DNA of 32,000 nucleotides, taken from Alkanindiges illinoisensis DSM 15370 (lineage in GTDB: Bacteria; Pseudomonadota; Gammaproteobacteria; Pseudomonadales; Moraxellaceae). The number at the start of each line of letters is the position of its first letter. The stretch's first letter is position 1. The stretch is from assembly GCF_000619845.1 (NCBI RefSeq), contig NZ_JHUX01000003.1, forward strand, positions 1,570,064 to 1,602,063, written 5' to 3'. The notes under the pieces were generated by a model. It was given only the letters and a program-made list of their open reading frames with translations. It had not been told where the DNA came from and did not search any database. The position numbers and the translations under genes were made by a program. Below are positions 1 through 31,985 of the stretch, in pieces.

Positions 1-139
1 CATCAGCATTTGGCGCATGATGACACCGGCTTGAATGCCAGTAATGTTGGCAGCGGCTTCAAATATCTTTGTTTCATCATCGGTCAGATTGATATTGAAG
101 CGGTTGTCACGCTTTTGTTTTCTGATACGCAATGACATG
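1..139 (-). CDS. Early-operon protein, ribbon-helix-helix-like, 3' end outside the window
   Basis: ATG at 137-139 is preceded by an AGGAG RBS that overlaps the stop of the upstream gene. Translation is MSLRIRKQKRDNRFNINLTDDETKIFEAAANITGIQAGVIMRQMLM..., a basic N-terminus followed by a beta-strand/helix pattern typical of RHH/MobC-like DNA binders. This ORF is not in the supplied track because it is truncated. Confidence 0.55.
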
Positions 140-147
140 ACCCGCTC

Positions 148-354
148 CTAGTTCTGACTTTGGTTGGCATTTTGGCTGGCGAGCTTGCCGGCATAGTAAA
201 ACTTGGCAATAACGCTAGAACGGCTGGAATCAGTCTGCTCTGCAATTTCATCCAGAAATTTGAGTTCTTCCGCTGGAAGATACAGGGCGCAACGCTCACG
301 ACCACCTGAGATTTTGCGGGCGCGTGTCGATTTAGGTGAATTTGATGTGCTCAT
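148..354 (-). CDS. Ribbon-helix-helix (CopG/Arc-like) DNA-binding protein, first gene of the leftward early operon (functional analogue of Cro/Cox/Apl)
   Basis: Uses the internal ATG of track ORF 148..399. MSTSNSPKSTRARKISGGRERCALYLPAEELKFLDEIAEQTDSSRSSVIAKFYY has the RHH pattern (beta strand RCALYLP, then helices). It is divergent from the repressor gene across an operator-containing 80-bp region. Confidence 0.65.
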   Translation of the reverse strand: MSTSNSPKSTRARKISGGRERCALYLPAEELKFLDEIAEQTDSSRSSVIAKFYYAGKLASQNANQSQN

Positions 355-378
355 AAGGTAAACTCGGCCATAGTGATA

Positions 379-398
379 TGCTATAGCCCAATATAGCA
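379..398. promoter_or_regulatory. Operator-like inverted repeat in the divergent switch region
   Basis: Perfect 7-bp inverted repeat TGCTATA-GCCCAA-TATAGCA, lying between the divergent RHH gene (start 354) and the repressor gene (start 436). Confidence 0.55.
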
Positions 399-435
399 CA
401 AATATTTACCCTTTCAATAGAAATAGGTGAAATTT

Positions 436-891
436 ATGTCTGATTCTTCAGATTCGAATATACATAGCGCCGAAAACATAGCGCATCGCTTTAATGATGA
501 AGTCGCACGTAATGGCTTTAAGGCTAAAAGTTTGTCGCGTGATATTGGCGCGCATGAAAACACGCTGGGCAATTATGTTCGGGGCAAGGTGCCGGATCAG
601 TGGGTGTATTTAGCCAGGCTGCATGAAAAAGGCATTGATATTCGTTATGTGCTGCTGGGCATTGACCCGGATTTTGCAGGGCTGACCAGTGAAGAAAGCC
701 TGTTATTAAAAGCCTATCGGCAGATTAGTCCTGAAGGACAGGAAGCATTACTGGGTTTGGCCAAGGCCTATGCAAAAGATGGTGAAAAAAATGCAATGGT
801 ACAAAGTCAGTATATGGAACCGCTTGATTATGATTTTGATTTGCCAAGCATTAAAATAAAAACTGATGACGATGAAAAATCGTCTGCATAA
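436..891 (+). CDS. XRE/CI-type helix-turn-helix immunity repressor
   Basis: AGGTGA RBS at 425-430 is 5 nt upstream of the ATG at 436; the track start at 427 is a GTG inside the RBS. HTH segment FKAKSLSRDIGAHENTLGNYVRGK...YLARLHEKGIDIRYVLLG. It is divergent from the early operon, as C is in P2 and CI in 186. Confidence 0.8.
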   Translation: MSDSSDSNIHSAENIAHRFNDEVARNGFKAKSLSRDIGAHENTLGNYVRGKVPDQWVYLARLHEKGIDIRYVLLGIDPDFAGLTSEESLLLKAYRQISPEGQEALLGLAKAYAKDGEKNAMVQSQYMEPLDYDFDLPSIKIKTDDDEKSSA

Positions 892-921
892 AAAAACCGG
901 CAACTGAAAACCAGCTGCCGG
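891..921 (-). terminator. Rho-independent terminator of the 1657->939 minus-strand operon
   Basis: The minus strand reads CCGGCAGCTG-gtttt-CAGTTGCCGG (10-bp stem with one G-U pair) followed by TTTTTTT. It lies between convergent genes. Confidence 0.75.
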
Positions 922-938
922 TGATACCACTGCCTAAA

Positions 939-1520
939 CTAACTATCCAGCTTATGCTGCACTTTCTCTAGCTTTTGCTCAATGTCCAGCAGCTTATACA
1001 CCAGGTCATTTAAATTATAGGTGACCTGCGGATTGTTGACTGCACTCTCCAGTGAGCTGCGCCAGATGCGGATGTTACCCAGTGCCATGTCCAGCAATAA
1101 ACCTGTGTCGGGCTGTTGATTTGGATTGACTTGCATAGTTCTCCTGTTGTCCGTTGATATTGTTTGGGTGCTGGCAATCCTGTTTAACTGAAAACGCCAG
1201 CCTGCCACCGCCTCATCATACCAAATGGAACTTTTTACAACGCCCGTTCCATGAAAAATTGGATATTTTGCGTCAGCCAGTGACGCAGTAATGTCTTCGA
1301 GTGGTGGCAGGGCTGGCTGTTCTTCCTGCTGTAATAAGGCTCTGATTTGCTCATAGGAAATCACCAGAAAACCATGCTGGGTAGTATGGTTGATGTTATG
1401 CCCCTGCTGCACCAGATAATCTACCGCAGCAAACAGTTGTTTAAGCACTTTGCGGCTTTTCTTGCAGGTGGCCATGACACGATCGCCAATGGGAACGTAA
1501 GGAATGATGGAATCGTTCAT
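939..1520 (-). CDS. Hypothetical protein, 193 aa, no recognisable domain
   Basis: Long ORF with backbone-like composition. Its ATG overlaps the stop of the upstream small ORF (ATGA). The C-terminus looks coiled-coil-like (LNDLVYKLLDIEQKLEKVQHKL). Confidence 0.6.
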   Translation of the reverse strand: MNDSIIPYVPIGDRVMATCKKSRKVLKQLFAAVDYLVQQGHNINHTTQHGFLVISYEQIRALLQQEEQPALPPLEDITASLADAKYPIFHGTGVVKSSIWYDEAVAGWRFQLNRIASTQTISTDNRRTMQVNPNQQPDTGLLLDMALGNIRIWRSSLESAVNNPQVTYNLNDLVYKLLDIEQKLEKVQHKLDS

Positions 1521-1657
1521 TTGGCACCTGCCTTGATTTTTGCAATCAGTTTGGCAAGCGTGCTTTGAGGTATAGCAAAGTTGGATGCGGTTAAGCGGTT
1601 ATAGCAGATAAGGTCGAATTGAGTGCTTGGACGTGCAGGTGCCTGACGTAACTTCAT
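1517..1657 (-). CDS. Small (46 aa) putative HTH protein, translationally coupled to the 193-aa ORF
   Basis: MKLRQAPARPSTQFDLICYNRLTASNFAIPQSTLAKLIAKIKAGAK. ATGA overlap with the downstream gene. Below the 60-aa cutoff of the ORF track. The RBS is weak (gagaaaag). Confidence 0.4.
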   Translation of the reverse strand: MKLRQAPARPSTQFDLICYNRLTASNFAIPQSTLAKLIAKIKAGAK

Positions 1658-1688
1658 AGTCTTTTCTCGTGAATAAGTTTTAAGTTAT

Positions 1689-1791
1689 CCACCACCTAAC
1701 TTTCCTAGGGTTAGGGTGGCAGATCAGACAAGGCTAGGAAAACCGCTTCACGAGTCGCGGCCAGCCCGAAGGCTGCCCCATCTGATCCACC
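1689..1791 (-). ncRNA. Structured leader or cis-regulatory element upstream of the small-ORF operon; family not recognised
   Basis: Nested complementarity: 1715-1728 pairs with 1781-1791 (GGTGGcAGATCAGA/TCTGATCCACC). The inner hairpin 1762-1775 reads CAGCC-UUCG-GGCUG on the minus strand, a cUUCGg tetraloop. A second hairpin is 1689-1700/1710-1719. Confidence 0.35.
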
Positions 1792-1816
1792 ATAAAAGTA
1801 TGACCAAACAGTTGGC

Positions 1817-1840
1817 AAAAAAATAGCCGCTGAAGCGACT
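1817..1840 (-). terminator. Rho-independent terminator downstream of the NDT-like gene
   Basis: The minus strand reads AGTCGC-TTCA-GCGGCT followed by ATTTTTTT. It lies about 100 nt after the stop at 1941. Confidence 0.6.
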
Positions 1841-1909
1841 GTGTTTTTGCGCTCGTGAAGTATATGCGAGTTTCCTAGGCTCGACACCGATTTTGCGGTG
1901 TAAATATAT

Positions 1910-1938
1910 CTTGTGTCATAGCGTGCTGTTATGTCAAG
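1910..1938 (+). repeat. Cargo-island 29-bp repeat, copy 1
   Basis: CTTGTGTCATAGCGTGCTGTTATGTCAAG. It ends 2 nt from the stop codon of the NDT-like gene. Confidence 0.9.
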
Positions 1939-1940
1939 GG

Positions 1941-2873
1941 TTATTTAAGTACTATCATCTCCATAATACTAACATCTGGTACAACTGTTCTCACTAACTC
2001 TAAAAGTCTATCAAGCATAAAAGTAAAAGGTTTATCCGAAATAATATAGATACTGTTTACCTCCTTATCAGTGAAAAGAGAGTTATTTTTATTAGAATTT
2101 TCTACTGAAAGTCTTTCAAATTTCAATTTAGGATATATTGAATTTATTTGAGTTTTAAAACTTTCATATTCTATATCAGTTAAATATCTTTGTAATATTA
2201 ATCTTAAAATATTCTTTTTGACTTCAATATCATAACTTGATTTGGCTAAGTTTTGATTAGATTGATTTAAAGTAACCTTAGATAATAAATTTTCAATATT
2301 GTCTAACCGATCTAATAGATATCGTTGTGGATCATTCTCCTGAATTTGATCTCTAATAATTTTAGTACTTGAAACCCTATGAACTGGATTATCAGCTTCA
2401 GTTTGGCTCATAGCATCAACAACCGCAGCTTCTAATGCTGGTTTTAATTCTTCAGCTCCATGCATATCATTAAAATAAAAAATGGTACGTTCAGCAGCAA
2501 TATCAAATGGTAGTTTAGTACCATGCTCCGCTAAAACTACAACTGGCTTATTGGTGCAATGCCGTACTGCCAGCTCATACATGACATTGGGATTAAGCTC
2601 ACTTAAATTAGCAATTACCAAATCATCAAATAGGACACGTTCGATAACCTGGCGAGGAATTGAGCCAGCCACTGAGATTTCGTGAGCTGCAACAACATCA
2701 AAACCCATTTCCTTAAGAACAGGGCGCATTACTGCTCTAATTAGTCCATCGGCCGCCCTACGGGTTGGCGTGTTGTCTCCACCAATTGGGGTGACAATAA
2801 AGCATTTTTTCTTTTCATTAACAGCATCATCACTCATGTTTTCATTATTGGTAGCTGATTTTTTTGCAGTCAC
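1941..2873 (-). CDS. Nucleoside 2-deoxyribosyltransferase-like (TIR-related Rossmannoid) domain protein with an uncharacterised C-terminal domain; candidate defence effector
   Basis: GTG start with a GGA-type RBS 9 nt upstream. N-terminal motifs are KKCFIVTPIGG, DLVIANLSELNPNVMYELAV, NKPVVVLA and LPFDIAAERTIFY. These match the CFVIMPFG...ADLS..NPNV.YELG...KP...PFD pattern I associate with NDT-like folds. The C-terminal ~135 aa are AT-rich-encoded with no recognisable motif. Confidence 0.6.
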   Translation of the reverse strand: MTAKKSATNNENMSDDAVNEKKKCFIVTPIGGDNTPTRRAADGLIRAVMRPVLKEMGFDVVAAHEISVAGSIPRQVIERVLFDDLVIANLSELNPNVMYELAVRHCTNKPVVVLAEHGTKLPFDIAAERTIFYFNDMHGAEELKPALEAAVVDAMSQTEADNPVHRVSSTKIIRDQIQENDPQRYLLDRLDNIENLLSKVTLNQSNQNLAKSSYDIEVKKNILRLILQRYLTDIEYESFKTQINSIYPKLKFERLSVENSNKNNSLFTDKEVNSIYIISDKPFTFMLDRLLELVRTVVPDVSIMEMIVLK

Positions 2874-2904
2874 TTGCTTGTATCCTAATGATCTTTAAAA
2901 ATAG

Positions 2905-2933
2905 CTTGTTCCATAGTGTGCTGTTATGTCAAG
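2905..2933 (+). repeat. Cargo-island 29-bp repeat, copy 2
   Basis: CTTGTTCCATAGTGTGCTGTTATGTCAAG, 26/29 identical to copy 1. It lies in the divergent intergenic region between modules A and B. Confidence 0.9.
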
Positions 2934-2978
2934 ATTTGGACAGAATATTTTGATAAAACTAATAATTTTGGGGTAAGT

Positions 2979-3776
2979 ATGGCGTTTATTGGGGCAATTT
3001 TATTTTTATTCCTTATAGCCGTAGTGGTGGCTACAATAGCTGGTCTAATTAATCCAAAAACGCTTGTAAACAAGAAAAAGCCTGAACAGGTTATGAGCCG
3101 AAAACAGATTCTAGGTAGTGGGATAGCCCTTTGTTTATTGCTGGTTGCTTTGATTGGTGTAGTAGCAAGTGATGATAAGGTGAAAGTAACAACTGCCATT
3201 AACGATCCTAGCCCAGCTGCCGCAAAGAAAGAAGAACCTACTAATCTGACAGTCCAAAATAATAACAATCCTACTGAACCTGCCAGTTCTCAATCTGCTG
3301 AAACAGTCCAGCAAAACCTTGGTATAACCGCTGAAGAATTTCGGCAAAAATTTAATGCTGAACTAAAAAAAGCTGATCTATCAGAATTAAGACCTGTAGC
3401 CGAATTTGATATTAAGCAAGGTGAAAAAGCAGGTACTTTTAATGTGATGTTTGGTGATGCCTTAGGCATGATGGGTGTAGTCGATAAACAGAATAATTTG
3501 AAAAGCCTTATTTTTATGATGGGTAGAACTGATGAGGGTGAAAAAGTTGGACTAAATTTATTATTGCTTAGTTCCTTTGCGGCCCGTGTATTAAATCCAG
3601 AAGTTGAACATGAAAAAACAGCGACTACCTTAATGGGACTTATCCAAAAGGCCATGAAAGATCCTACAGCGGAAAATAATACGCATAGTCAGGTCTTTGG
3701 GAATACTAAATATTACTCATTAGCCAGTCCCTACACGGGTTTATGGGTTGGGTTTGAGCCTGTGGAGAAAAAATAA
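2979..3776 (+). CDS. Membrane protein: two N-terminal TM helices, low-complexity linker, ~160-aa periplasm-facing globular domain
   Basis: I prefer ATG 2979 (MAFIGAILFLFLIAVVVATIAGL...) to the track GTG 2916, which lies inside repeat copy 2. TM1 is followed by a KKK-rich loop, then TM2 (ILGSGIALCLLLVALIGVVA), then a P/N/S/Q-rich linker. The stop overlaps the next start (TAATG). Confidence 0.7.
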   Translation: MAFIGAILFLFLIAVVVATIAGLINPKTLVNKKKPEQVMSRKQILGSGIALCLLLVALIGVVASDDKVKVTTAINDPSPAAAKKEEPTNLTVQNNNNPTEPASSQSAETVQQNLGITAEEFRQKFNAELKKADLSELRPVAEFDIKQGEKAGTFNVMFGDALGMMGVVDKQNNLKSLIFMMGRTDEGEKVGLNLLLLSSFAARVLNPEVEHEKTATTLMGLIQKAMKDPTAENNTHSQVFGNTKYYSLASPYTGLWVGFEPVEKK

Positions 3777-4759
3777 TGATGACAGATCCAGGGTTTTTAA
3801 GTGAATTGGAGTATAGCCGAAAGCATGAGGAAGAAGTGCAACGATTAAAGGTTGAGGCTGAACTTAATCAATTTAATAAAGAAAAAGATAAGATCCTAGC
3901 CAATATAAACAGGTTGGAAAACAAATTAAGTAAAGTAAGTAAAAATTCAACTCTCATAAAGAGTATTGATAGTATTAAGCATGCTATGAATACTGAACTT
4001 AAACATCCTCGTGAAGTAACACTATTAAATCTGCTTGAATCAAGCATTCATAGTATGAATCTAGAAATTGAAAAATATGAAAATAAACTTCTTTTGGAAA
4101 ATGCCTTATTTGGAAACATTATTGCAGAATTAGCCGCAATTGAAAGGGCTTTTCAAATTTATAGAGAATCTGCATATTCATTTGAAAAATTTGTCAGGGA
4201 ACCATTTAATGTTTCTTTTACAGAAGTTTTGGAAGAATTGAGGTCATTTAGAAAATCGAGAGCTATTGCTGATAATGCGCGCACAGAAGATTTTTATAAT
4301 AAGGCTGTTGAAAAATATACTGACCTAGAAAGTATATATAGAAAATATTTTTATAATGGAGTAGCTATTCTTGCGGCTTTTACACTTTTATCTACTTTAT
4401 TTAAAAAATACTTTATTGAATATGATGTGATTAGCACAATTGATTTTTGGATAATTAAAGGTTCTGCCCTAATTATTGGAATAACTTTAATTACTTATTT
4501 TTTGAAACAGTCTACTCGTTATCAGAAACTGGCTGACCAAAACTATCAGACACAAGTTGAGTTACAAGCTTATCCTAGCTATATAGAAAGTATTCCTACC
4601 AGTGAAGCAGCTGCTATCCGTAAAGAACTGGCCCTTAAATATTTTGGTCGTGAAATCGATAAAGACAGCAGTAGTTCTAATGAATTACTCACTGACCAGA
4701 TTCAAGCGAGTACTGAGCTGGTCAAAGCATCTATAGAAATTATTAAAAATGTAAAATGA
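3776..4759 (+). CDS. Coiled-coil protein with a C-proximal TM hairpin (possible SLATT-like 2TM effector)
   Basis: About 200 aa of heptad-like, E/K/L/N-rich sequence. Two TM helices follow (GVAILAAFTLLSTLF and GSALIIGITLITYFL), then an ~80-aa tail. Translationally coupled to the upstream gene. Confidence 0.7.
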   Translation: MMTDPGFLSELEYSRKHEEEVQRLKVEAELNQFNKEKDKILANINRLENKLSKVSKNSTLIKSIDSIKHAMNTELKHPREVTLLNLLESSIHSMNLEIEKYENKLLLENALFGNIIAELAAIERAFQIYRESAYSFEKFVREPFNVSFTEVLEELRSFRKSRAIADNARTEDFYNKAVEKYTDLESIYRKYFYNGVAILAAFTLLSTLFKKYFIEYDVISTIDFWIIKGSALIIGITLITYFLKQSTRYQKLADQNYQTQVELQAYPSYIESIPTSEAAAIRKELALKYFGREIDKDSSSSNELLTDQIQASTELVKASIEIIKNVK

Positions 4760-4767
4760 ATATGCTT

Positions 4768-4796
4768 CTTGTGTCTTAGCGTGCCGCTATGTCATT
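4768..4796 (+). repeat. Cargo-island 29-bp repeat, copy 3
   Basis: CTTGTGTCTTAGCGTGCCGCTATGTCATT, 24/29 identical to copy 1. It starts 9 nt after the stop of the module B operon. Confidence 0.85.
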
Positions 4797-4865
4797 ATTC
4801 AAAAATAATTTAGTATTTTTTTGGATTGACATACTTATAAAACATTCAAAAGTCAAGGAATGACG

Positions 4866-5075
4866 ATGAAAAAAGCATTTTTATTAAGTTTAATTATTGG
4901 CATTAATCCTGCTGCTATGGCAGCAACTTGCAAAGACTTTAAGACGCATGCACAGGCTCAGGCTTATTTTGATGCCAAAAAGCCGGGTTATAAGCGACTG
5001 GATCGGGACAAGGATGGTAGCGCCTGTGACTGCTTGCCTGGTGGTAATGGGAAGAAATGTCCAAAGCGGAAGTAA
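4866..5075 (+). CDS. Secreted Excalibur calcium-binding domain miniprotein
   Basis: AAGGA RBS at 4855-4859 favours ATG 4866 over 4860. Signal peptide MKKAFLLSLIIGINPAAMAA, then CKDF..HAQAQAYF....YKRLDRDKDGSACDC, the Excalibur DxDxDGxxC(E/D) motif. Confidence 0.75.
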   Translation: MKKAFLLSLIIGINPAAMAATCKDFKTHAQAQAYFDAKKPGYKRLDRDKDGSACDCLPGGNGKKCPKRK

Positions 5076-5171
5076 CTGCTGCGGAGCAATTAAACTAATT
5101 CGTAACCATAATAGTAATGCCTATAATCGGCAGTGTCAGTAATTTTTAAAAGGTTAATTTAAAAGGATTTA

Positions 5172-7886
5172 ATGATGAACAACTTGAAATTTTCTGAATT
5201 AAAGAAAGAACTTCAAAATAAGATGCGTACTGTCAAAGATTTAGCTCGATATATAGATAAGAAGCGAGAATTACATCCGAATTATAGTATTTTTCTAGGT
5301 TCAGGTGCTTCTGTGACATCTGGCATTAAAAGTGGAGGGCAACTTGTTAATGAGTGGAGAAGAGAAATATATGAACAAACAAGTGAAAAACCATATCTTA
5401 TAAGCATCGAAGATGCGAATAAAACTCTTAGTGAGGAGGACGCTCTTAAGCAAGCTGTTCAATATCTTATTCATGAACAAGGTTCTTGGTACAATCCACT
5501 TAATGAATATTCATCCTTATTTGAAAGAAAATTTGATTTACCTTCACAACGTAGAAGGTTTGTTGAAAAATTAGTAGATGAAAAATTACCATCTATCGGT
5601 TACCTGTATCTTATCTCATTAATAAACGAAGGTTACTTTAATACAATTTTTACAACTAATTTTGATGATTTGATTAATGAAGCTTTCTACCAGTTTTCCA
5701 ATATTAGACCACATGTTTGTGCTCATGACTCATCAATAGGAAGCTTATCTGTATTATCAAATAGACCTAAAATTATCAAACTTCATGGTGATTATCTTTT
5801 TGACGATATTAAAAATACATTAAGAGAAACTGAAAGCTTAGAAACTAATACTAAAGAGAAATTTATTGAATTTTCTAAAGAAAGTGGCTTAATTATTGTT
5901 GGCTATTCAGGCCAAGATCGTTCAGTAATGGACGTAATAAATTATTTACTCCAGCAAGAAGAATATTTGAAAAATGGTTTATATTGGTGTTTTAGAAAAG
6001 ATGATGAGATCCCGCATGAAATTAGAAAAATTCTATGGAGAGATAAAGTTTATTGTATTGAAATCGAAGGATATGATCAATTTCTAGCAGATATATTTCT
6101 ACAATTAAATTGCAAATTATCTTTAACTGATAAAGATTTCCATTCTAAACGTGATAAATGTATTAAAAGTTTCATTGAAGATAATTTTAATCTAAATACA
6201 AGTGAAGCCATTTCAATGCATATTGATGAAATGAAGGCATTAAATAGAAGGCAAGATATTTCAAAATTTTTGCAACAGATAAAGGAAACAGATCTCAATC
6301 AATTAGATCAAATAGAATTTAAAAGTATGCTTGAAATAGAAACTTTGATAAAAGAAAGAAAATTTGATGAAGTTGATAAAAAAATTGATCTAAAGCTTAT
6401 GGAAAAATTAAATCCTGATCTTAAAGAAAATTATTTTAAATTAAAATTAAAAAGTTATAAAATGGCTGGAGAAACAAAAAAGGCTATAGACTTTATTGAT
6501 GAGTTAATCAGAACTGACCCTTTCAATCAAAAGTTATTAACATGGAAGTTGGATTTTTTAGAAGCATTAAAGGAGCAGATTTATACTGTTAAAGATTTTT
6601 GTGATAAAAACCAATACTCTTATACAATACGAAATAAATTAGTACGTTTACTTTTAGAATATAATGAATCCAGAAATAAGTGGCATGAAACTATTACTCT
6701 TGAAAATTCTTTAGATATTATAAATGATAGCTTAAAAATTAATTCTAGCTTAGATAATAGTGCTTATACTCTTAAGTTAAAAATATTAGATCAAATTAAT
6801 AAGAAAAAACTTAAAACTAGTCTAAAACCATCAGAGAAAGATAAATTAAATCAGCCTTTAAAGGACTTAATAAAATCTGCAGAATCAATTAATCCTATAC
6901 ATCTTCAATTCCTCGAATTAAAAAAACTCTTTGCATTAATAACTCTTGATCCATCTGATATTAATAATTATATACAAGCATGTACATTTACTAACTCTTA
7001 CGTTAATAATAAATTACAAATAAATCTTTTAGAGAAGCAAGTTGCTTTTTACAATACTTTATTATTACATAAAGATTTTAATGATATAGAAACAACTAAC
7101 AACATTGAGAAATTTTTTCTACACGCAGGCAATTATCCACATGCAAATACTAATATGATATTTATAATAGGCAAAGTTGATTTTTTAATTGATAATAAAA
7201 GAGATTTAGGTCAAGGTATCGAAATACTATATGATTTATTAGAAAATGTTGAATCTTATAGTTATATTTTAAGTATTATTAATAGAATTTGTTATGATAA
7301 TTCATCTAATAATTTAAGTCGTATTAAAGTTAAATTGGAAAGTATTAAAAATCTTATTGATCACGAAGATTATTTAATATGTTACTGCTATATTACTGAT
7401 GCAGAGAATAAAACATTAGACGCACTTAAATTTTTTATTGAGTTTTTTGAAATTCAAACAAACAAGCAGAATCATCTTATTAAATACACTTATTTCTTAC
7501 TTAAAGCTGAAAAATACGATGAAGTAATTAAGCTTTATGAAGATAATAAAAGCCTTATACGTGAACTAAGTCATGAAAATCAAGTAGTTCTATCTATAAA
7601 TCTTATTTGTGCTGAAAAGGCTAAGTATCAAGTTCTCAGTGAATCTAATAAATCATTGTTAAATCAATATAGATCTTCAAAGCCTACTCCATCAATATTT
7701 ATATGTGCTTTAGCCCTTTTAGAAGATAATCAGGCTTTTCATCATATGAAAGAACGTATCTATAAAGAATTTAGTGCATATTATGAACTGCGTAGCTGGC
7801 CAGCGATGAGTGAGAAATTTAAGAAACTATTAGATCAAGAATTTCAGAATATTACTGTAGATCCCATATCTAAGTTAGCAAGTTAA
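5172..7886 (+). CDS. SIR2_2-family (ThsA/DSR-type) NAD-binding domain fused to a ~600-aa TPR-like helical-repeat region; candidate NAD+-depleting defence protein
   Basis: N-terminal motifs appear in the order seen in ThsA/DSR SIR2 domains: IFLGSGASVTSGI (G-x-G NAD loop), IFTTNFDDLINEAF (TTN[YF]D), IIKLHGDYLFD (catalytic His) and LIIVGYSGQDRSV. The remainder is K/N/L/I-rich with TPR-like segments (e.g. AIDFIDELIRTDPFNQKLL). Confidence 0.8.
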   Translation: MMNNLKFSELKKELQNKMRTVKDLARYIDKKRELHPNYSIFLGSGASVTSGIKSGGQLVNEWRREIYEQTSEKPYLISIEDANKTLSEEDALKQAVQYLIHEQGSWYNPLNEYSSLFERKFDLPSQRRRFVEKLVDEKLPSIGYLYLISLINEGYFNTIFTTNFDDLINEAFYQFSNIRPHVCAHDSSIGSLSVLSNRPKIIKLHGDYLFDDIKNTLRETESLETNTKEKFIEFSKESGLIIVGYSGQDRSVMDVINYLLQQEEYLKNGLYWCFRKDDEIPHEIRKILWRDKVYCIEIEGYDQFLADIFLQLNCKLSLTDKDFHSKRDKCIKSFIEDNFNLNTSEAISMHIDEMKALNRRQDISKFLQQIKETDLNQLDQIEFKSMLEIETLIKERKFDEVDKKIDLKLMEKLNPDLKENYFKLKLKSYKMAGETKKAIDFIDELIRTDPFNQKLLTWKLDFLEALKEQIYTVKDFCDKNQYSYTIRNKLVRLLLEYNESRNKWHETITLENSLDIINDSLKINSSLDNSAYTLKLKILDQINKKKLKTSLKPSEKDKLNQPLKDLIKSAESINPIHLQFLELKKLFALITLDPSDINNYIQACTFTNSYVNNKLQINLLEKQVAFYNTLLLHKDFNDIETTNNIEKFFLHAGNYPHANTNMIFIIGKVDFLIDNKRDLGQGIEILYDLLENVESYSYILSIINRICYDNSSNNLSRIKVKLESIKNLIDHEDYLICYCYITDAENKTLDALKFFIEFFEIQTNKQNHLIKYTYFLLKAEKYDEVIKLYEDNKSLIRELSHENQVVLSINLICAEKAKYQVLSESNKSLLNQYRSSKPTPSIFICALALLEDNQAFHHMKERIYKEFSAYYELRSWPAMSEKFKKLLDQEFQNITVDPISKLAS

Positions 7887-7909
7887 TATTTTCTATAAAA
7901 TTTATTCAA

Positions 7910-7934
7910 AGCCCTGCTCATCTTTAGTAGGGCT
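7910..7934. terminator. Hairpin between the convergent SIR2 gene and ogr (bidirectional terminator candidate)
   Basis: AGCCCTGCT-catcttt-AGTAGGGCT, a 9-bp stem with one G-U pair. There is a partial T-run on the minus side only. Confidence 0.5.
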
Positions 7935-7942
7935 AACAGTAA

Positions 7943-8203
7943 TTATATAGCTGCATGCTCATCATTCGCGGCCTTACGCTGGGCCGTGATCTCATCATGG
8001 GTTTTAAGCTGGATGCCAGGACGTGGACAGGCGCTTGGTGAAATCTGGTGAGTGATTTCCAAATTACCGCCACAAGTAAAACCGCATAGATAATTACTGC
8101 ACTGAAACCAAAGCTGGCGCAAAAGTGGATGCGCTTCCCTGCTGCTTCGTATAGTCATTGATGCTGCACAATGTGGGCATTGAAATTTGCTACGTTGAGC
8201 CAT
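7943..8203 (-). CDS. ogr: Ogr/Delta-family zinc-finger late transcription activator
   Basis: Motif CPHC...(22 aa)...QCSNYLCGFTC gives a four-Cys pattern like P2 Ogr. Its position immediately after gene D is as in P2. Confidence 0.9.
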   Translation of the reverse strand: MAQRSKFQCPHCAASMTIRSSREAHPLLRQLWFQCSNYLCGFTCGGNLEITHQISPSACPRPGIQLKTHDEITAQRKAANDEHAAI

Positions 8204-8278
8204 AATTTTCTGTAACTTTCCATTGATTATTTTATGTCCATCATAGCAAATTCGGTTAAATATTTGTGCTTTAAGTAA

Positions 8279-9535
8279 CTATTTTTTAGATTTTTTTAAA
8301 GCAAGTAGCTCCTGATATTCCCGATTGGCCGCAATGGTTGCGGTCTGCTGGGTTTTATACAGATAGGTCAGGCGTTTTGGTGTGGTCTGATCGCCTGAGG
8401 TGACCTTTGCGGTGTTTTTACCATCCTTATAATATGCCACGATGCCTGTATAGTCGCCGCGTTCATCATCAATCAGTTCACTTAAATCATCGGCATCTGG
8501 CAAATACACTTCCAGCTCAACTGACGTGCTATAGCCATTATCGGCATCCAGTGTATGCACTACCCGTGAACCCAGCCAGATAATATCGTCAATTTCCGGT
8601 TTTAAGCCTAAAAATGATATTGGCATTTCCGGGATAAGTTCTGGCTCACCTTTGGCCAGGTTATAACTAAAAGTGCAGGATTTGCTTTTTAACCGGTTAA
8701 ATTCGGCCTGGGCAGTATGCAGTGCACTATTTTTATCGCGCTGGATGTTGCGAAGTTCCTTGGTGTTTTCATTGGACTGGCCAATGGTGACTTTCTGCTT
8801 TTCGGCCTTGTCCGGATCATAGTAATAACAGGTCACACCGCTAATATCATCTGCCCCATCAGTATCTGAAAAACGGTGGCTGTCGCCCTGGATACGACGA
8901 ATAATAAATTCTGGAAATGACACACCGCTGGCAGTCTGGCCAGTACCTTTAGGCATAAATAGCAAATTGCCATTTTTGACCGTGGCGATTGCGTCGTGTT
9001 CATCGGCGATCCGGGTGATCAGATTGGCATCAGATTCATTCTGATCGATATGAGCCAGCACGATTTTTGCCAGTTCAGGATTAACTTTAGGCGTTAGGCC
9101 CTGTTCGCCAGCAATGGCGGTGATGATGTCGCCAATGGTTTTTTTATCAAAACTACGTTCCTTTTTTTTCTTAAACGTACTTTTTAAATCCGCTGAAGCG
9201 CCACGAATGGTGATGATATCCGGTGCACCGCTATGCTCACGCTCCTTGACCAGATATTTACCTTTATAGACAAGGCCAGTATCACTCCACCCGATCCAGG
9301 CGTGGATCTCTGCCCCCTTGGGTGGAATTTCCAGTTTTCCGTCATGGTCTGACAGCTCAATGTCGATACTATCTGCTTCAATCCCACGATTATCAGTGAT
9401 GGTCATCCGCATTAAGCGTGTGGCCACCAGTGCGCCAATGTCCTTATCATTAACAACCAGGCGGTAAATTGCCTGTGGGTAGGATTCACCCAGCTGCTGG
9501 TTTACATAGGAAATAGCATTACTGACTAAACTCAT
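8279..9535 (-). CDS. D: Tail protein D (late control gene D protein)
   Basis: 418 aa. Follows U with a 4-nt overlap and is the last gene of the FI operon, as in P2. Confidence 0.85.
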   Translation of the reverse strand: MSLVSNAISYVNQQLGESYPQAIYRLVVNDKDIGALVATRLMRMTITDNRGIEADSIDIELSDHDGKLEIPPKGAEIHAWIGWSDTGLVYKGKYLVKEREHSGAPDIITIRGASADLKSTFKKKKERSFDKKTIGDIITAIAGEQGLTPKVNPELAKIVLAHIDQNESDANLITRIADEHDAIATVKNGNLLFMPKGTGQTASGVSFPEFIIRRIQGDSHRFSDTDGADDISGVTCYYYDPDKAEKQKVTIGQSNENTKELRNIQRDKNSALHTAQAEFNRLKSKSCTFSYNLAKGEPELIPEMPISFLGLKPEIDDIIWLGSRVVHTLDADNGYSTSVELEVYLPDADDLSELIDDERGDYTGIVAYYKDGKNTAKVTSGDQTTPKRLTYLYKTQQTATIAANREYQELLALKKSKK

Positions 9536-9975: not shown

Positions 9976-12597
9976 TTAATTATGGTCTTTGTAGCTGTTA
10001 CGGGCACGTGCCTGCTTTTGCTGGTCACGGCGAGTTAGAATTTGCTCTACCTGCTGGGCAATCTGCTGGGGTGACTGTCCTGGTTGTGTATGGAATACAA
10101 ATGAGTTTGTATCGCCCTGGACATGCACCGGTGCAGCAGCTGGACGTGTCTGCAGCTGAACCGGTTTAATCTTGTTGACTAGCGGTGGCGTTACTGCCGG
10201 AATTGACGCTAGTGCTGGATTGCTTGACAGGCCAGCATAGGCAGGGGCTGATGTACCAAAACTAAAGGAAGGCATGGCATTTTTAATATTTGCCCAAACG
10301 CCTTTTAGTTTTTCAAAACCGGACGTTAGGCCGTTGATTAAGCCATTAATGATCAGGCTGCCAAAATCAGTAAACTTGGCAGGCAGATCAACTCCAAACC
10401 AGCTTAATACCTTGGCAAATACAGAATAAAACAGGCCTAGCGGCGACCAATTGGTGATGAGCTTACTCATGCCCCCAATGCCACCACCAAAAGCCGTTTT
10501 TGCTTCTGTCATGCGTGCACCAAACCAGCTGCCGATCGGCGCAAATTTGTCAGTGATAGATTGCTTTACAGAGGTGAATTTTTCTGTAATCGATGTGCCT
10601 AAATCGCTAAAAAAGCCATATATAGGTTCCCAGTTCTTGTAGATCAGGTATGCACCTGCAGCAATCGCTGTAATAGCCAACCCAATAGGATTCATTAAAA
10701 ATAGTCTGCCTACCCATAAAAATATACGGCCTAGACCAAAGAAGGCAGATTTGGCAGCATTAAATACAGTGGGTAATACACTAAAAATACGGGTAAGTAA
10801 TGTGCCACCTGTGCCCAGTGAAGCCATAATCAAGCGAAGGCTGAACATCCCTAGGATCAATGGGGAGAATACGGCCAAAGCGCCACCAATAACGATCAGG
10901 CTTGCTGCAATACCAAGCAGGCCTACACCCAGCATTTTTGCCAGTGCCGGGTTTTGCTGCAGCCACTCAGTAAAGGTTTTTAATGCACCAGTGGCCGTTT
11001 CAAGTGCCTGGGTATAGATGGGTAAAATGGTCTGGCCAAAGTCCAGATAAGCATCATGCAGTTTGGCCTTGGCTTCCAGCTCTTTACCTGCAGTGGTGTC
11101 TTTTGCCTTATCATAAATCTGGTCGATATTATCCGCACCCTCATTGAGCTTGGCATTTTTGTGTACCTGAGTGCGTTGCTGATACATGGTGGCAAACAGG
11201 TTTGATGCAGTCCGGTTGCTAAAAATACTGCCGATAGCATCAATGATATCCCCTTCCTTGGTAATGCCCTTTGCTTTCAACGCAGGCACCAGAATTTGTT
11301 CCATCCATGCGAACTGGTCACGTTTAAATAAATCTGCACCTTTAATCGCGCCAACATCTAAAAATGCAAGCTGGCCTGCTTTATCGCGCTGCACTTTTCG
11401 GCTATCAGAAATTAGCCCAAATTTGTCCAGGTTATCCATTGCCCTATTGGTGGTACGGCCCTGATACAAGTTTTGATATGCCGACATTACAGCTGTCCCC
11501 ACGCGGTGCCCACCCATTTCCTGTACGAATGGTTCCATCTTGTAGTAAAAGGCTTTGTTATCAAGTCCTTTAGCGGCAATACCACCTGTTTTAATGGCAT
11601 TTAGCCATTCTTCACCCTGAACACGGCCACCAGTTGCTGTAATCACCTGTTGAATAATATTGGCCTGTTCCTTGAAAGCAGCTTCACTTTTTAGGCCATT
11701 ACGCATTTCAATGACTTTAAGCATGTCCATGAATTTTTTTTCATTTTCTGCACCATGCTCATTGCCATACATGGCTTCATTGCCAAATTTCATTTTAGCC
11801 AGGATGGGTGCTGCCATTTCTGCATGATGCACGTCAGCAAATGCAGTCAAACCATCACGCATCAGTGTCAGGTTTTCAACCGTAGATGTGCCAAAAGTTT
11901 TCATAGCCCGGGCATGTTTAATGGACTCTTTAGTAACTTGGTCACCTAAACCTAATGATGCAATGCGATAAGTTTCAGTTTCATAATGCTTGCTTTCATT
12001 AATAGGCTTTTTGAACTGGTACATGGCACCAATGCCAGTCATGGCTGCCCCTGCACCATACATGGCTGCCGTACGCAGCTTGCCCGATGTGTTTTGATAG
12101 TTTTGCTGCAGCTGGTTTAAATGCTGCAATTGCTGCTGTTGCTGCTGTAGTCCCTGATTACTCTGATTGAGCTGGGTACGAAGCCGCTGCTGGTGATTAG
12201 CAAGGTTATTGGTAGATAGGCCTGCCTGATTCAAATCGGCACGCATGCGCTGCAACTGGATGCTGTTTTGCTCATGCTGCTGTTTTAGGCGTTTTGCAGC
12301 TGCTACAGACTTATCAAAATCACGGGTTAAAGCTGCAGATGGGTTGGTGGCCATCTGCTGACGTAAGGATTTGATTTTATCCTGCATGTCTTTTAAGGCA
12401 CGTGCGCTGTCCTGTACTGCTTTTTTCTGACGAATGTAGCCATCTACTTTGCCCTGCTGGGCTTCAAGCTCTTTAATTTGTTGTTTGGTTTGCCTTAAAG
12501 CATTGGCAGCAGCTTTACTACTACCAACAATAGTGCGTAAAGCGGGGCTTAACTTGTTAGCCGCCCCGAAAATAACTTCTAGTTTTAATGTTTTCAT
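9976..12597 (-). CDS. T: Tail tape measure protein T
   Basis: 873 aa with an N-terminal coiled coil (Q-rich), Gly/Ala-rich hydrophobic segments and a conserved position after E/E'. Confidence 0.9.
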   Translation of the reverse strand: MKTLKLEVIFGAANKLSPALRTIVGSSKAAANALRQTKQQIKELEAQQGKVDGYIRQKKAVQDSARALKDMQDKIKSLRQQMATNPSAALTRDFDKSVAAAKRLKQQHEQNSIQLQRMRADLNQAGLSTNNLANHQQRLRTQLNQSNQGLQQQQQQLQHLNQLQQNYQNTSGKLRTAAMYGAGAAMTGIGAMYQFKKPINESKHYETETYRIASLGLGDQVTKESIKHARAMKTFGTSTVENLTLMRDGLTAFADVHHAEMAAPILAKMKFGNEAMYGNEHGAENEKKFMDMLKVIEMRNGLKSEAAFKEQANIIQQVITATGGRVQGEEWLNAIKTGGIAAKGLDNKAFYYKMEPFVQEMGGHRVGTAVMSAYQNLYQGRTTNRAMDNLDKFGLISDSRKVQRDKAGQLAFLDVGAIKGADLFKRDQFAWMEQILVPALKAKGITKEGDIIDAIGSIFSNRTASNLFATMYQQRTQVHKNAKLNEGADNIDQIYDKAKDTTAGKELEAKAKLHDAYLDFGQTILPIYTQALETATGALKTFTEWLQQNPALAKMLGVGLLGIAASLIVIGGALAVFSPLILGMFSLRLIMASLGTGGTLLTRIFSVLPTVFNAAKSAFFGLGRIFLWVGRLFLMNPIGLAITAIAAGAYLIYKNWEPIYGFFSDLGTSITEKFTSVKQSITDKFAPIGSWFGARMTEAKTAFGGGIGGMSKLITNWSPLGLFYSVFAKVLSWFGVDLPAKFTDFGSLIINGLINGLTSGFEKLKGVWANIKNAMPSFSFGTSAPAYAGLSSNPALASIPAVTPPLVNKIKPVQLQTRPAAAPVHVQGDTNSFVFHTQPGQSPQQIAQQVEQILTRRDQQKQARARNSYKDHN

Positions 12598-31628: not shown

Positions 31629-31705
31629 TGGGGTGGCTAATGGGACTCGAACCCACGACAACCGAGATCACAACCCGGGGCTCTACCAACTGAGCTATAG
31701 CCACC
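31629..31705 (-). tRNA. tRNA-His (GUG), with G-1 and encoded CCA
   Basis: The reverse complement GGTGGCTATAGCTCAGTTGGTAGAGCCCCGGGTTGTGATCTCGGTTGTCGTGGGTTCGAGTCCCATTAGCCACCCCA folds as a cloverleaf. It is near-identical to enterobacterial tRNA-His. Confidence 0.95.
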
Positions 31706-31763
31706 ATAGACAATGCAAGATGCATTATTTTGATGCTTTAATATAAAAGCTGGCGGCATGATG

Positions 31764-31840
31764 TGGCGCGCCTGACAGGATTCGAACCTGTGACCACCCG
31801 CTTAGAAGGCGGGTGCTCTATCCAACTGAGCTACAGGCGC
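31764..31840 (-). tRNA. tRNA-Arg (UCU)
   Basis: The reverse complement is GCGCCTGTAGCTCAGTTGGATAGAGCACCCGCCTTCTAAGCGGGTGGTCACAGGTTCGAATCCTGTCAGGCGCGCCA. The anticodon loop is CTTCTAA. Confidence 0.95.
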
Positions 31841-31908
31841 ATGATTGCTGATGCCTAACAAGTGTTTAGGTTATCACGCGGCTGCACTACAATAAACCGC
31901 CGATTAAC

Positions 31909-31985
<77 letters not shown>

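Follow-up and report, generated by a model that had tools for sequence, protein, structure and literature searches.

A gene at the left end of a low-GC island in Alkanindiges illinoisensis DSM 15370 encodes a 310-residue protein and, by analogy with known effectors, can be read as a prophage moron: a unit that is complete in itself, is expressed in the lysogen and acts against phages through this one protein, whose N-glycosidase would be triggered by phage, a reading towards which the balance of the evidence tips slightly. The gene lies at 1941-2873 on the minus strand of the window, the 32,000-nucleotide stretch of DNA analysed here (contig NZ_JHUX01000003.1, positions 1,570,064 to 1,602,063), which holds a P2-like prophage. 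Its product is identical to WP_051526661.1 of A. illinoisensis, annotated "hypothetical protein". Two observations speak for the GTG start: an AGGA at 2886-2883, 9 nucleotides (nt) 5' of the start codon, and the N-terminus, which is kept as MTAKK or MTxKK in homologues, one of which has the same leader and GTG in its DNA (contig L040). An earlier, sequence-only reading had delimited this open reading frame (ORF) and quoted its motifs, all of which were found again in the protein: KKCFIVTPIGG at residues 21-31, DLVIANLSELNPNVMYELAV at residues 84-103, KPVVVLA at residues 109-115 and LPFDIAAERTIFY at residues 121-133. The gene and the predicted parts of its product are placed as follows.

1941-2873, minus strand: candidate gene, whole ORF, 310 residues, GTG start
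2469-2816, minus strand: predicted N-terminal flavodoxin-like N-glycosidase domain of the TIR/nucleoside 2-deoxyribosyltransferase (NDT) superfamily, residues 20-135, placed by AlphaFold2, Foldseek, PADLOC and alignments
2574-2576, minus strand: codon of Glu100, the predicted catalytic residue, in the motif N-P-N-V-M-Y-E-L, placed by invariance in alignments
2259-2468, minus strand: helical stalk, residues 136-205, with AlphaFold2 helices at 137-156, 163-179 and 182-205
1944-2258, minus strand: hypervariable C-terminal domain, residues 206-310, placed by AlphaFold2 secondary structure, a drop in identity and the DNA mosaic against L040

Predicted enzyme domain and variable C-terminal domain

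From the perspective of its fold, the N-terminal part of the protein can be assigned to a broad assemblage of TIR, NDT and CMP-hydrolase domains. In an AlphaFold2 model built from 34 homologues (mean predicted local distance difference test score 74.5; mostly 80-96 in the N-terminal domain, with two 10-residue blocks at 67-69), residues 22-133 form a five-stranded parallel beta/alpha domain, with strands at 22-27, 58-62, 85-89, 111-116 and 130-133 and helices between them. The best Foldseek match in the PDB is human DNPH1 (8rps, E=1.6e-4, TM-score on target 0.69), and further matches include NDTs (8pqr, 7o62, 6evs), the CMP N-glycosidase BcmB (4jen) and a TIR-STING protein (9lmq, E=2.7e-4); one of the matched DNPH1 entries has 5hmdUMP (5-hydroxymethyl-dUMP) bound. 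Against BFVD, the best match is a member of the family itself, annotated as a CMP/hydroxymethyl CMP hydrolase (E=2e-17), followed by NDTs and a CAP12/Pycsar TIR. At the sequence level, the PADLOC hidden Markov model (HMM) for the CBASS "Effector - TIR" (PDLC00733) is matched by 34/34 aligned members (best E=6e-11, residues ~38-132), and this is the sole statistically solid sequence-level link to known effectors. The Pfam NDT model PF05014 is matched weakly by three of the 34 (best E=3.5e-4), and weakly too by relatives in Klebsiella and Enterococcus phages (19.9 bits for the Klebsiella relative, against a cutoff of 28.8); the window protein itself does not match it, and the family stays under its gathering threshold. 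The structural, PADLOC and Pfam NDT lines converge on, and support, placement in the TIR/NDT/CMP-hydrolase assemblage. Scans of the window protein against Pfam and NCBIfam gave no meaningful family, the TIR models PF01582, PF13676, PF08937 and PF10137 found no match at E<=1 in the 38 proteins scanned, PF13271 (DUF4062) found none at the same limit, neither among the members nor among the distant relatives, and PDB sequence searches with the protein and with a profile returned noise only.

Within this domain, Glu100 is the candidate catalytic residue. Enzymes of the NDT/DNPH1 superfamily (Pfam clan Nribosyltransf) have their nucleophilic Glu in a G-x-x-E-x-G motif at the head of the helix behind the third central strand, with a Tyr in strand 1 and an Asp in helix 3 as partners, and Glu100 answers to the position of that Glu. 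It is invariant in an alignment of 34 close-family sequences (34/34) and in one of 19 distant sequences from Enterobacteria, Bacteroidota, Clostridium, Desulfovibrio and phages of Gram-positive bacteria (19/19), in which C24, I30, I72, N94, N96, P110, F123 and D124 are likewise invariant. In a weak hhalign comparison (E=0.01, probability 4%) with a DNPH1 sequence, E100 aligns with the DNPH1 nucleophile E104 (VMYE100LA against VGYE104LG), while the DNPH1 residues Tyr24 and Asp80 fall, at low confidence, on Cys24 (Cys24/Phe25) and on Gln75/Val76. Since the Tyr and Asp partners of NDT and DNPH1 are not conserved, the protein is not a canonical NDT or DNPH1, although it shares the fold and the Glu with enzymes of that type. 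The N94-x-N96-x-x-x-E100 spacing equals that of what we take to be the NDT motif, D92...E98. A further motif, T37-R38-R39, is invariant in subfamily A and is not conserved across the superfamily; it could serve as a phosphate binder.

The sequence-only reading had proposed an NDT-like, TIR-related fold, with the Glu of NVMYEL as nucleophile, and had named the structural comparisons by which this could be examined. Matches to DNPH1, NDT, BcmB and TIR-STING structures, together with the conserved acidic Glu100, support the fold and the candidate residue, and the weak PF05014 signal agrees with them; an NDT-like identity holds for fold and Glu and fails for the Tyr/Asp partners and the PF05014 threshold.

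Behind the enzyme domain, the helical stalk ends in a short coiled-coil-like LLxxLDxIE segment (residues 182-205), in which L190 is invariant and L186, D191, I193 and E194 are nearly so, and which probably mediates oligomerisation. The C-terminal domain that follows is modelled as a ferredoxin-like beta-alpha-beta-beta-alpha-beta fold (residues 221-309). Mean pairwise identity falls steadily along the protein, from 74% at residues 20-135 through 50% at residues 136-180 and 41% at residues 181-205 to 13% at residues 206-310. The closest relative, protein P0002 on contig L040, is 69% identical overall and its gene occupies exactly the same slot. Between the two, DNA identity is 78-92% from the 5' leader to codon ~206, 58-71% with gaps in the C-terminal domain and 84% in the downstream flank, which means that an exchange in situ has given the two proteins different C-terminal domains while the flanks stayed conserved. 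An unrelated C-terminal domain, possibly a sensor, had been suspected from the letters of this one gene, and its hypervariability and exchange are consistent with that suspicion: replacement of this kind is the behaviour that would be expected of a specificity or sensor module. A search with the C-terminal domain alone as query yielded no candidates, in a search that did not recover the parent protein itself.

Proposed promoter copies and the isrK-like/C4 RNA module

Two of three copies of a 38-nt direct repeat bracket the gene; two occurrences of the 22-nt core are present, where shuffled sequences lead one to expect 0.00. The distances given in the sequence-only reading hold: 2 nt separate the stop codon from copy 1, and 31 nt separate the start codon from the 29-nt core (2905-2933) of copy 2. 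These copies and the RNA genes next to copy 1 are the following.

1901-1938, minus strand: repeat copy 1, with TTGACA at 1937-1932, an 18-nt spacer and CAAGAT at 1913-1908; the 5' end of the isrK-like RNA follows 7 nt on
2896-2933, minus strand: repeat copy 2 (87%), with TTGACA at 2932-2927, an 18-nt spacer and CAAGCT at 2908-2903
4759-4796, minus strand: repeat copy 3 (74%), with ATGACA, an 18-nt spacer and CAAGAA, between the next two cargo modules
1820-1901, minus strand: isrK-like small RNA, Rfam RF01394, 35.6 bits, below the gathering score of 50
1712-1797, minus strand: C4 antisense RNA of the P1/P7 immI type, Rfam RF01695, 69.8 bits (gathering score 45), downstream of the isrK-like RNA

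The isrK-like RNA and the C4 RNA are a P1/P7 immI-type module inside a P2-like prophage, and nt 44-52 of C4 (CUCGUGAAG) form the complement of positions 1852-1860 in the isrK-like RNA. In L013, a sister prophage from a second A. illinoisensis strain, the isrK-like RNA scores 40.5 bits, also below 50, and the same layout can be seen by eye downstream of the L040 gene. An 18-nt core of the repeat recurs in that sister prophage and in nine P2-like IMG/VR contigs, directly upstream of the isrK-like hairpin in all of them but one, and a C4 RNA was detected in every one. In the exception (L025), a 204-residue ORF (10845-11459) stands between the promoter element and C4, and another contig (L020) holds two tandem C4 copies, at 3586-3668 and 3879-3962; insertions therefore occur inside the immI-like module too.

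Read towards isrK, the element consists of TTGACA, an 18-nt spacer and CAA(G/C/T)AT, with the 5' end of the RNA 6-7 nt later. Because it combines a perfect -35 hexamer and a weak -10 with conserved spacing and a conserved place before the isrK-like RNA, the repeat is read as the promoter of the P1 immI-like module, presumed active on the strength of this conservation and spacing, and it is probably also the operator of that module. Copy 1 would accordingly represent the resident isrK-like/C4 promoter; it also forms the conserved border of a cargo hotspot. Copy 2, whose TTGACA-N18-CAAGCT is set 23-30 nt upstream of the GTG in a leader that is kept in L040, appears to be a duplicate of this promoter placed to drive the gene, with a predicted transcription start near 2896. 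With such a duplicate in front of it, the gene would share the expression of the isrK-like/C4 module, and by analogy with P1 this would extend to the lysogenic state. Copy 3, in which the T of the -10 hexamer is lost, looks like a decayed promoter remnant. The resulting order of promoter copy, gene, resident promoter, isrK-like RNA and C4 can be interpreted as a classic moron at the head of an immunity-RNA operon.

Two points of the earlier reading change with this. The bracketing repeats exist where they had been placed, and they are read as duplicated copies of the isrK-like/C4 promoter at the hotspot edge and not as recombination sites of a cassette. Also, the gene had been credited with a terminator of its own; the sole terminator-like hairpin downstream of it, a hairpin with a T-run at 1840-1825 on the minus strand, lies inside the isrK-like match and forms its 3' end, so the terminator belongs to the isrK-like RNA and is shared with it.

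Other identities for the repeats were tried and rejected. Integron attC-like or other recombination sites are ruled out, as the element adjoins the isrK-like hairpin and C4 in about ten related contigs, where it takes the form TTGACA-N18-CAAnAT, and no GTTRRRY cores are visible by eye; the window copy of the gene is without flanking attC sites (R''/R' cores), true VCR/attC repeats flanking only the Vibrio cholerae homologue. Targets of the C4 antisense RNA are ruled out by the lack of complementarity, C4 pairing instead with the isrK-like region, and Ogr sites (TGT-N12-ACA) were found to be absent by inspection.

On the plus strand, the repeat core (1915-1931, 2910-2926 and 4773-4789) could form a 7-bp hairpin, YAUAGYG-UGC-YGYUAUG. 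Over 14 copies from 11 sources (the window and ten contigs), each variable position is a pyrimidine facing an invariant G, and 95.6% of cells are paired, with one-sided G-U/G-C changes only, no double compensatory changes and no statistical support; the hairpin might be an operator or an RNA or single-stranded DNA structure. The 18-nt core also occurs once each in eight IMG/VR contigs of an unrelated phage group (L015, L017, L019, L022, L023, L028, L029 and L030), with near-identical flanks (...TTTTCTGTAGTGTGCCGTTATGTCAGACC...), which could reflect chance or a shared regulatory site.

Family distribution and proposed function

The protein belongs to a large family. A profile search of 1.84 billion cluster representatives (clusters at 50% identity) yielded 19,599 proteins with E<=1e-3, of which 2,841 also pass E<=1e-30; almost all have 190-340 residues, mostly 270-320, and share the same layout. 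No family member has a Pfam domain, and the sole functional labels from any source are "Nucleoside 2-deoxyribosyltransferase" in UniRef (P0021) and "RNA helicase" at NCBI (P0393). The literature on single-gene prophage defence by NDT-like, DNPH1-like and CMP-hydrolase proteins, searched outside subscription journals, contains analogues only (DUF4062/NIR, Thoeris ThsI and a retron NDT) and does not describe the family, which is thus not already known as far as the searched libraries and papers show.

Almost all occurrences of the family are on mobile elements. The V. cholerae homologue is a single-ORF cassette of the superintegron, set between VCR/attC repeats, and in V. coralliilyticus the homologue lies in an integron-like array. 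In primase-integrase islands of Acinetobacter, whose gene content resembles that of P4 satellites, the homologue slot adjoins the integrase and its alleles differ in their C-termini. Among prophages, homologues lie near int in Pseudomonas aeruginosa, adjoin int in Klebsiella (with a relative also in Enterococcus phiEf11) and, in prophage 315.2 of Streptococcus pyogenes, occupy the lysogeny module between cI and cro in the same direction as int and cI. Relatives are encoded on 147 IMG/VR contigs, the three strong PHROG matches are all of unknown function, and the 57 phage records matched are all temperate-type phages of Streptococcus, Staphylococcus, Klebsiella or Enterococcus, none of them virulent. 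A count of integrase adjacency by jackhmmer over IMG/VR loci (29/80) was not used, as the profile had drifted to ORFs of ~180 residues. In an Acidobacteria genome (L034), the homologue (7001-7876) is preceded by a 75-residue HTH_17 (excisionase/MerR-like) gene at 6777-7004 that overlaps its start by 4 nt and may have a regulatory role there.

The contexts examined have no conserved partner gene in common, and since the homologues include integron cassettes and occupy several kinds of mobile-element slot, the gene is taken to act as a stand-alone single gene. The expectation from the window alone had been of a single-gene unit on the strand opposite to the rest of its island, with homologues outside housekeeping contexts and no named defence system to which it could be assigned. 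This agrees with what was found: the gene is the sole minus-strand gene of the island, the homologue contexts are mostly prophages, islands and integrons, and library scans gave no match of the window protein to a named system.

A mechanism can be proposed by analogy. Transcribed from the duplicated isrK-like/C4 promoter copy, the protein would consist of an N-glycosidase domain (residues 20-135) with Glu100 as catalytic residue, a stalk, and a ferredoxin-like C-terminal domain acting as specificity module, and the enzyme would be held inactive in the lysogen. A component of a superinfecting phage would bind the C-terminal domain, the stalk would relay this binding through a change of oligomeric state, and the active site would open. 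The N-terminal domain would then cleave the N-glycosidic bond of nicotinamide adenine dinucleotide (NAD+), the most likely substrate, or of a nucleotide, and the cleavage would arrest the cell and block phage replication by abortive infection. We infer that the promoter copy is active, that the protein serves in defence, what triggers it and what it cleaves; a defence function in general is plausible, and is held somewhat above an even chance.

The preference for NAD+ comes from the closest functional precedents, the DUF4062/NIR proteins, because these share the structural neighbours of the present domain, were once annotated as CMP hydrolases and deplete NAD+. Swarozyc (bioRxiv 10.64898/2026.05.01.722283) and Vulcan and Avs2-NIR (bioRxiv 10.64898/2026.09.04.749371) are TIR-like DUF4062/NIR NADases activated by phage proteins: they deplete NAD+ on binding a phage portal, terminase or small phage protein, and the equivalent Glu is required (bioRxiv 10.64898/2026.05.01.722283; 10.64898/2026.09.04.749371). 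For NIR proteins, an association with known defence systems of 20% is reported, where 3.9% would be expected. Like Swarozyc and Vulcan, the window protein has an N-terminal TIR/CMP-hydrolase-like domain (catalytic Glu near 97-108), a helical stalk and a C-terminal sensor, and both groups are encoded by single genes on mobile elements or defence islands and have CMP hydrolase, ribosyltransferases and TIR as structural neighbours. Unlike them, it is without PF13271 even at E<=1 and carries a small ferredoxin-like C-terminal domain instead of the Swarozyc AUX domain or HEAT repeats.

Other known systems are more distant. TIR effectors of CBASS and the CAP12/Pycsar TIR are linked to the family by the PDLC00733 HMM and by Foldseek (9lmq and CAP12/Pycsar TIR), but here no CD-NTase or cyclase gene lies nearby, there is no SAVED, STING or cNMP-binding domain, the Pfam TIR models are unmatched, and the domain is N-terminal, whereas it is C-terminal in the PADLOC model (256-353 of 388). 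More broadly, no signal-making partner of CBASS, Pycsar or Thoeris (CD-NTase, cyclase or ThsB) was found in the window island or in the homologue contexts in which neighbours were called. DNPH1/Rcl, NDTs and MilB/BcmB provide the best matches among solved structures (E~1e-4, TM-score on target up to 0.7), with the Glu in the same motif position; they differ in the Tyr and Asp partners, in scoring against PF05014 and in having neither the extra stalk nor the variable domain, and the present family is distributed on mobile elements and not in housekeeping contexts. Retron-Eco1 (Ec86) offers a parallel in its use of an NDT-fold N-glycosidase as abortive-infection effector, one that is reported to hydrolyse NAD+. 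Published papers show that retron effectors can be NDT-like; in the window, no reverse transcriptase ORF and no msr/msd RNA was found in Rfam scans of positions 1-9000, and no PADLOC retron-effector model was matched. The gene is accordingly classified as a putative single-protein immune N-glycosidase of the TIR/NDT-like type, which is not categorically new.

Several observations weigh against the proposed function. Among the curated Pfam models for TIR, NDT and DUF4062, none is matched above threshold, and for this reason the superfamily placement rests on structure prediction and on sub-threshold or third-party HMMs. At 74% identity across phyla, the N-terminal domain varies less than is usual in a defence effector, no source names the family, and homologues in Pseudomonas syringae and Acidobacteria occupy chromosomal sites without an obvious mobile element or defence neighbours. 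The -10 hexamers CAAGCT and CAAGAT are weak, and a generic promoter scan did not report them.

Of the rival explanations, the strongest keeps the same defence architecture and changes the target to the nucleotide pool, with cleavage of (deoxy)nucleoside monophosphates, or of modified nucleotides specific to phages, such as hydroxymethyl-dCMP or hydroxymethyl-dUMP, as by DNPH1 and MilB/BcmB, so that phage DNA synthesis would be starved. It stays a serious alternative, although an unlikely one, because DNPH1 (including the 5hmdUMP entry), NDTs and BcmB are the best structural matches, and it draws further on the CMP/hydroxymethyl CMP hydrolase label of the BFVD family member, on the NDT motif spacing and on the possible phosphate binding by T37-R38-R39. 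Against it, the DNPH1/NDT residues Tyr24 and Asp80 correspond, in the weak alignment, to Cys24 and Gln75/Val76, the TRR motif is not kept throughout the superfamily, and DUF4062 domains, also annotated as CMP hydrolases, were found to be NADases (bioRxiv 10.64898/2026.09.04.749371).

The remaining explanations are less likely. The gene might be an addiction or toxin-type module that stabilises its mobile element, a constitutively dangerous N-glycosidase that is curbed from within, through the C-terminal domain, or by a factor of the host, and that requires no phage sensing. Such a role would suit a single gene for an enzyme of toxic potential, found as an integron cassette beside RelE/ParE-type toxin-antitoxin cassettes and adjoining island integrases, but no small antitoxin-like ORF is adjacent in the window or in most contexts, and the extreme diversification and swapping of the C-terminal domain fit an external, fast-evolving ligand better than intramolecular autoinhibition; we regard it as improbable. 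Somewhat less probable still is a counter-defence enzyme that degrades immune signals (cyclic ADP-ribose isomers or cyclic oligonucleotides) or remodels NAD metabolism on behalf of the phage. The presence of the family on many temperate phages would fit, and an N-glycosidase fold could cleave signals derived from ADP-ribose; however, the genes hold lysogeny-module or moron positions in the same direction as repressor and integrase, occur also in integron arrays and satellite-like islands that need no counter-defence, and are absent from virulent phages among the records matched, and a small-molecule hydrolase needs no hypervariable tail. Finally, an ordinary NDT-type enzyme of nucleotide salvage or DNA modification in lytic replication, suggested by weak similarity to PF05014 and to the phrog_355 NDT, is very improbable, given that every score is below threshold, that the gene lies outside the replication module and is present in chromosomal integrons and islands, that salvage NDTs lack the extra stalk and variable domain, and that related phages hold entirely different cargo in the same slot.

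If the reading as a phage-triggered effector is extended from the gene to its family, the latter may represent a very large unnamed set of autonomous single-protein immune N-glycosidases in Proteobacteria, Bacteroidota, Firmicutes, Acidobacteria and temperate phages, with a sensor swapped in situ and a chemistry possibly unlike that of TIR NADases; this extension is tentative and falls rather short of an even chance. The chemistry may differ because Cys24, Asn94, Asn96, Glu100 and Asp124 are invariant and the NDT Tyr/Asp pair is missing, and such a difference could mean nucleotide or modified-nucleotide targets. If true, this would add one of the larger unannotated single-gene defence families, one that Pfam, NCBIfam and the system models of PADLOC 2023 do not cover, to the TIR/NDT/NIR assemblage, and would provide a compact natural system (~300 residues, with a ~100-residue swappable sensor) for the gating of an N-glycosidase by a sensor, in which the window protein and its L040 relative form a ready-made specificity-swap pair.

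The cargo hotspot and its other modules

The gene lies in a variable cargo hotspot that is bounded by ogr on one side and by the isrK-like/C4 promoter on the other. In the related phages examined (for example L013 1656-5716, and L014, L016, L018, L024, L026 and L027), this interval measures 2-4.6 kb and has a different content in every one. This hotspot of Moraxellaceae P2-like phages is previously undescribed, and most proteins encoded in it, in the window as well as in the related phages examined, are without an assigned function. Its genes are mostly unannotated; one matches the PADLOC candidate PDC-M53A, two match PDC-M66A/B weakly, and a match to PDC-S48 was found also. Defence hotspots of P2 and P4 were reportedly described by Rousset et al. 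in 2022. The present slot resembles phage morons and P2-like defence hotspots in its promoter-gene-terminator unit, its deviant GC content and its variable position between ogr and the isrK-like/C4 promoter, and differs from P2-like hotspots in that its edge is the promoter of a P1 immI-like C4 module and its cargo modules are split by duplicated copies of that promoter. In the window, the island has a GC content of 0.33 (range 0.25-0.37), against ~0.45 for the prophage, and beyond the candidate gene it and its downstream flank contain the following genes.

2979-3776, plus strand: membrane protein, no family match
3776-4759, plus strand: 327-residue protein, no family match, in a two-gene module with the membrane protein
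4860-5075: 71-residue Excalibur-domain protein, before the SIR2 gene
5172-7886, plus strand: 904-residue protein with an N-terminal SIR2_2 domain, matching the PADLOC pAgo-associated SIR2 and PDC-S65 models
7943-8203, minus strand: Ogr/Delta zinc-finger gene (PF04606), downstream of the island

The SIR2_2 protein, which has a long C-terminal region encoded by AT-rich DNA and without a Pfam match, probably forms a defence module of its own within this hotspot. A homologue of the membrane protein (40% identity) occupies the same hotspot slot in the P2-like phage L018 (2980-3702), where it is followed by a 333-residue ORF. Downstream of the island, a gpD-like gene matches Phage_GPD with 26.5 bits, slightly under the cutoff of 30.1, and the other minus-strand ORFs beyond the island are taken as tail genes. 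A nucleotide search of window positions 1-9000 against GenBank phages gave no similarity. At the right end of the window, past the right-end ORFs of the prophage, a cluster of tRNA-His, tRNA-Arg and tRNA-Pro genes at 31629-31985 on the minus strand is perhaps close to the boundary of the prophage or to its attachment region.

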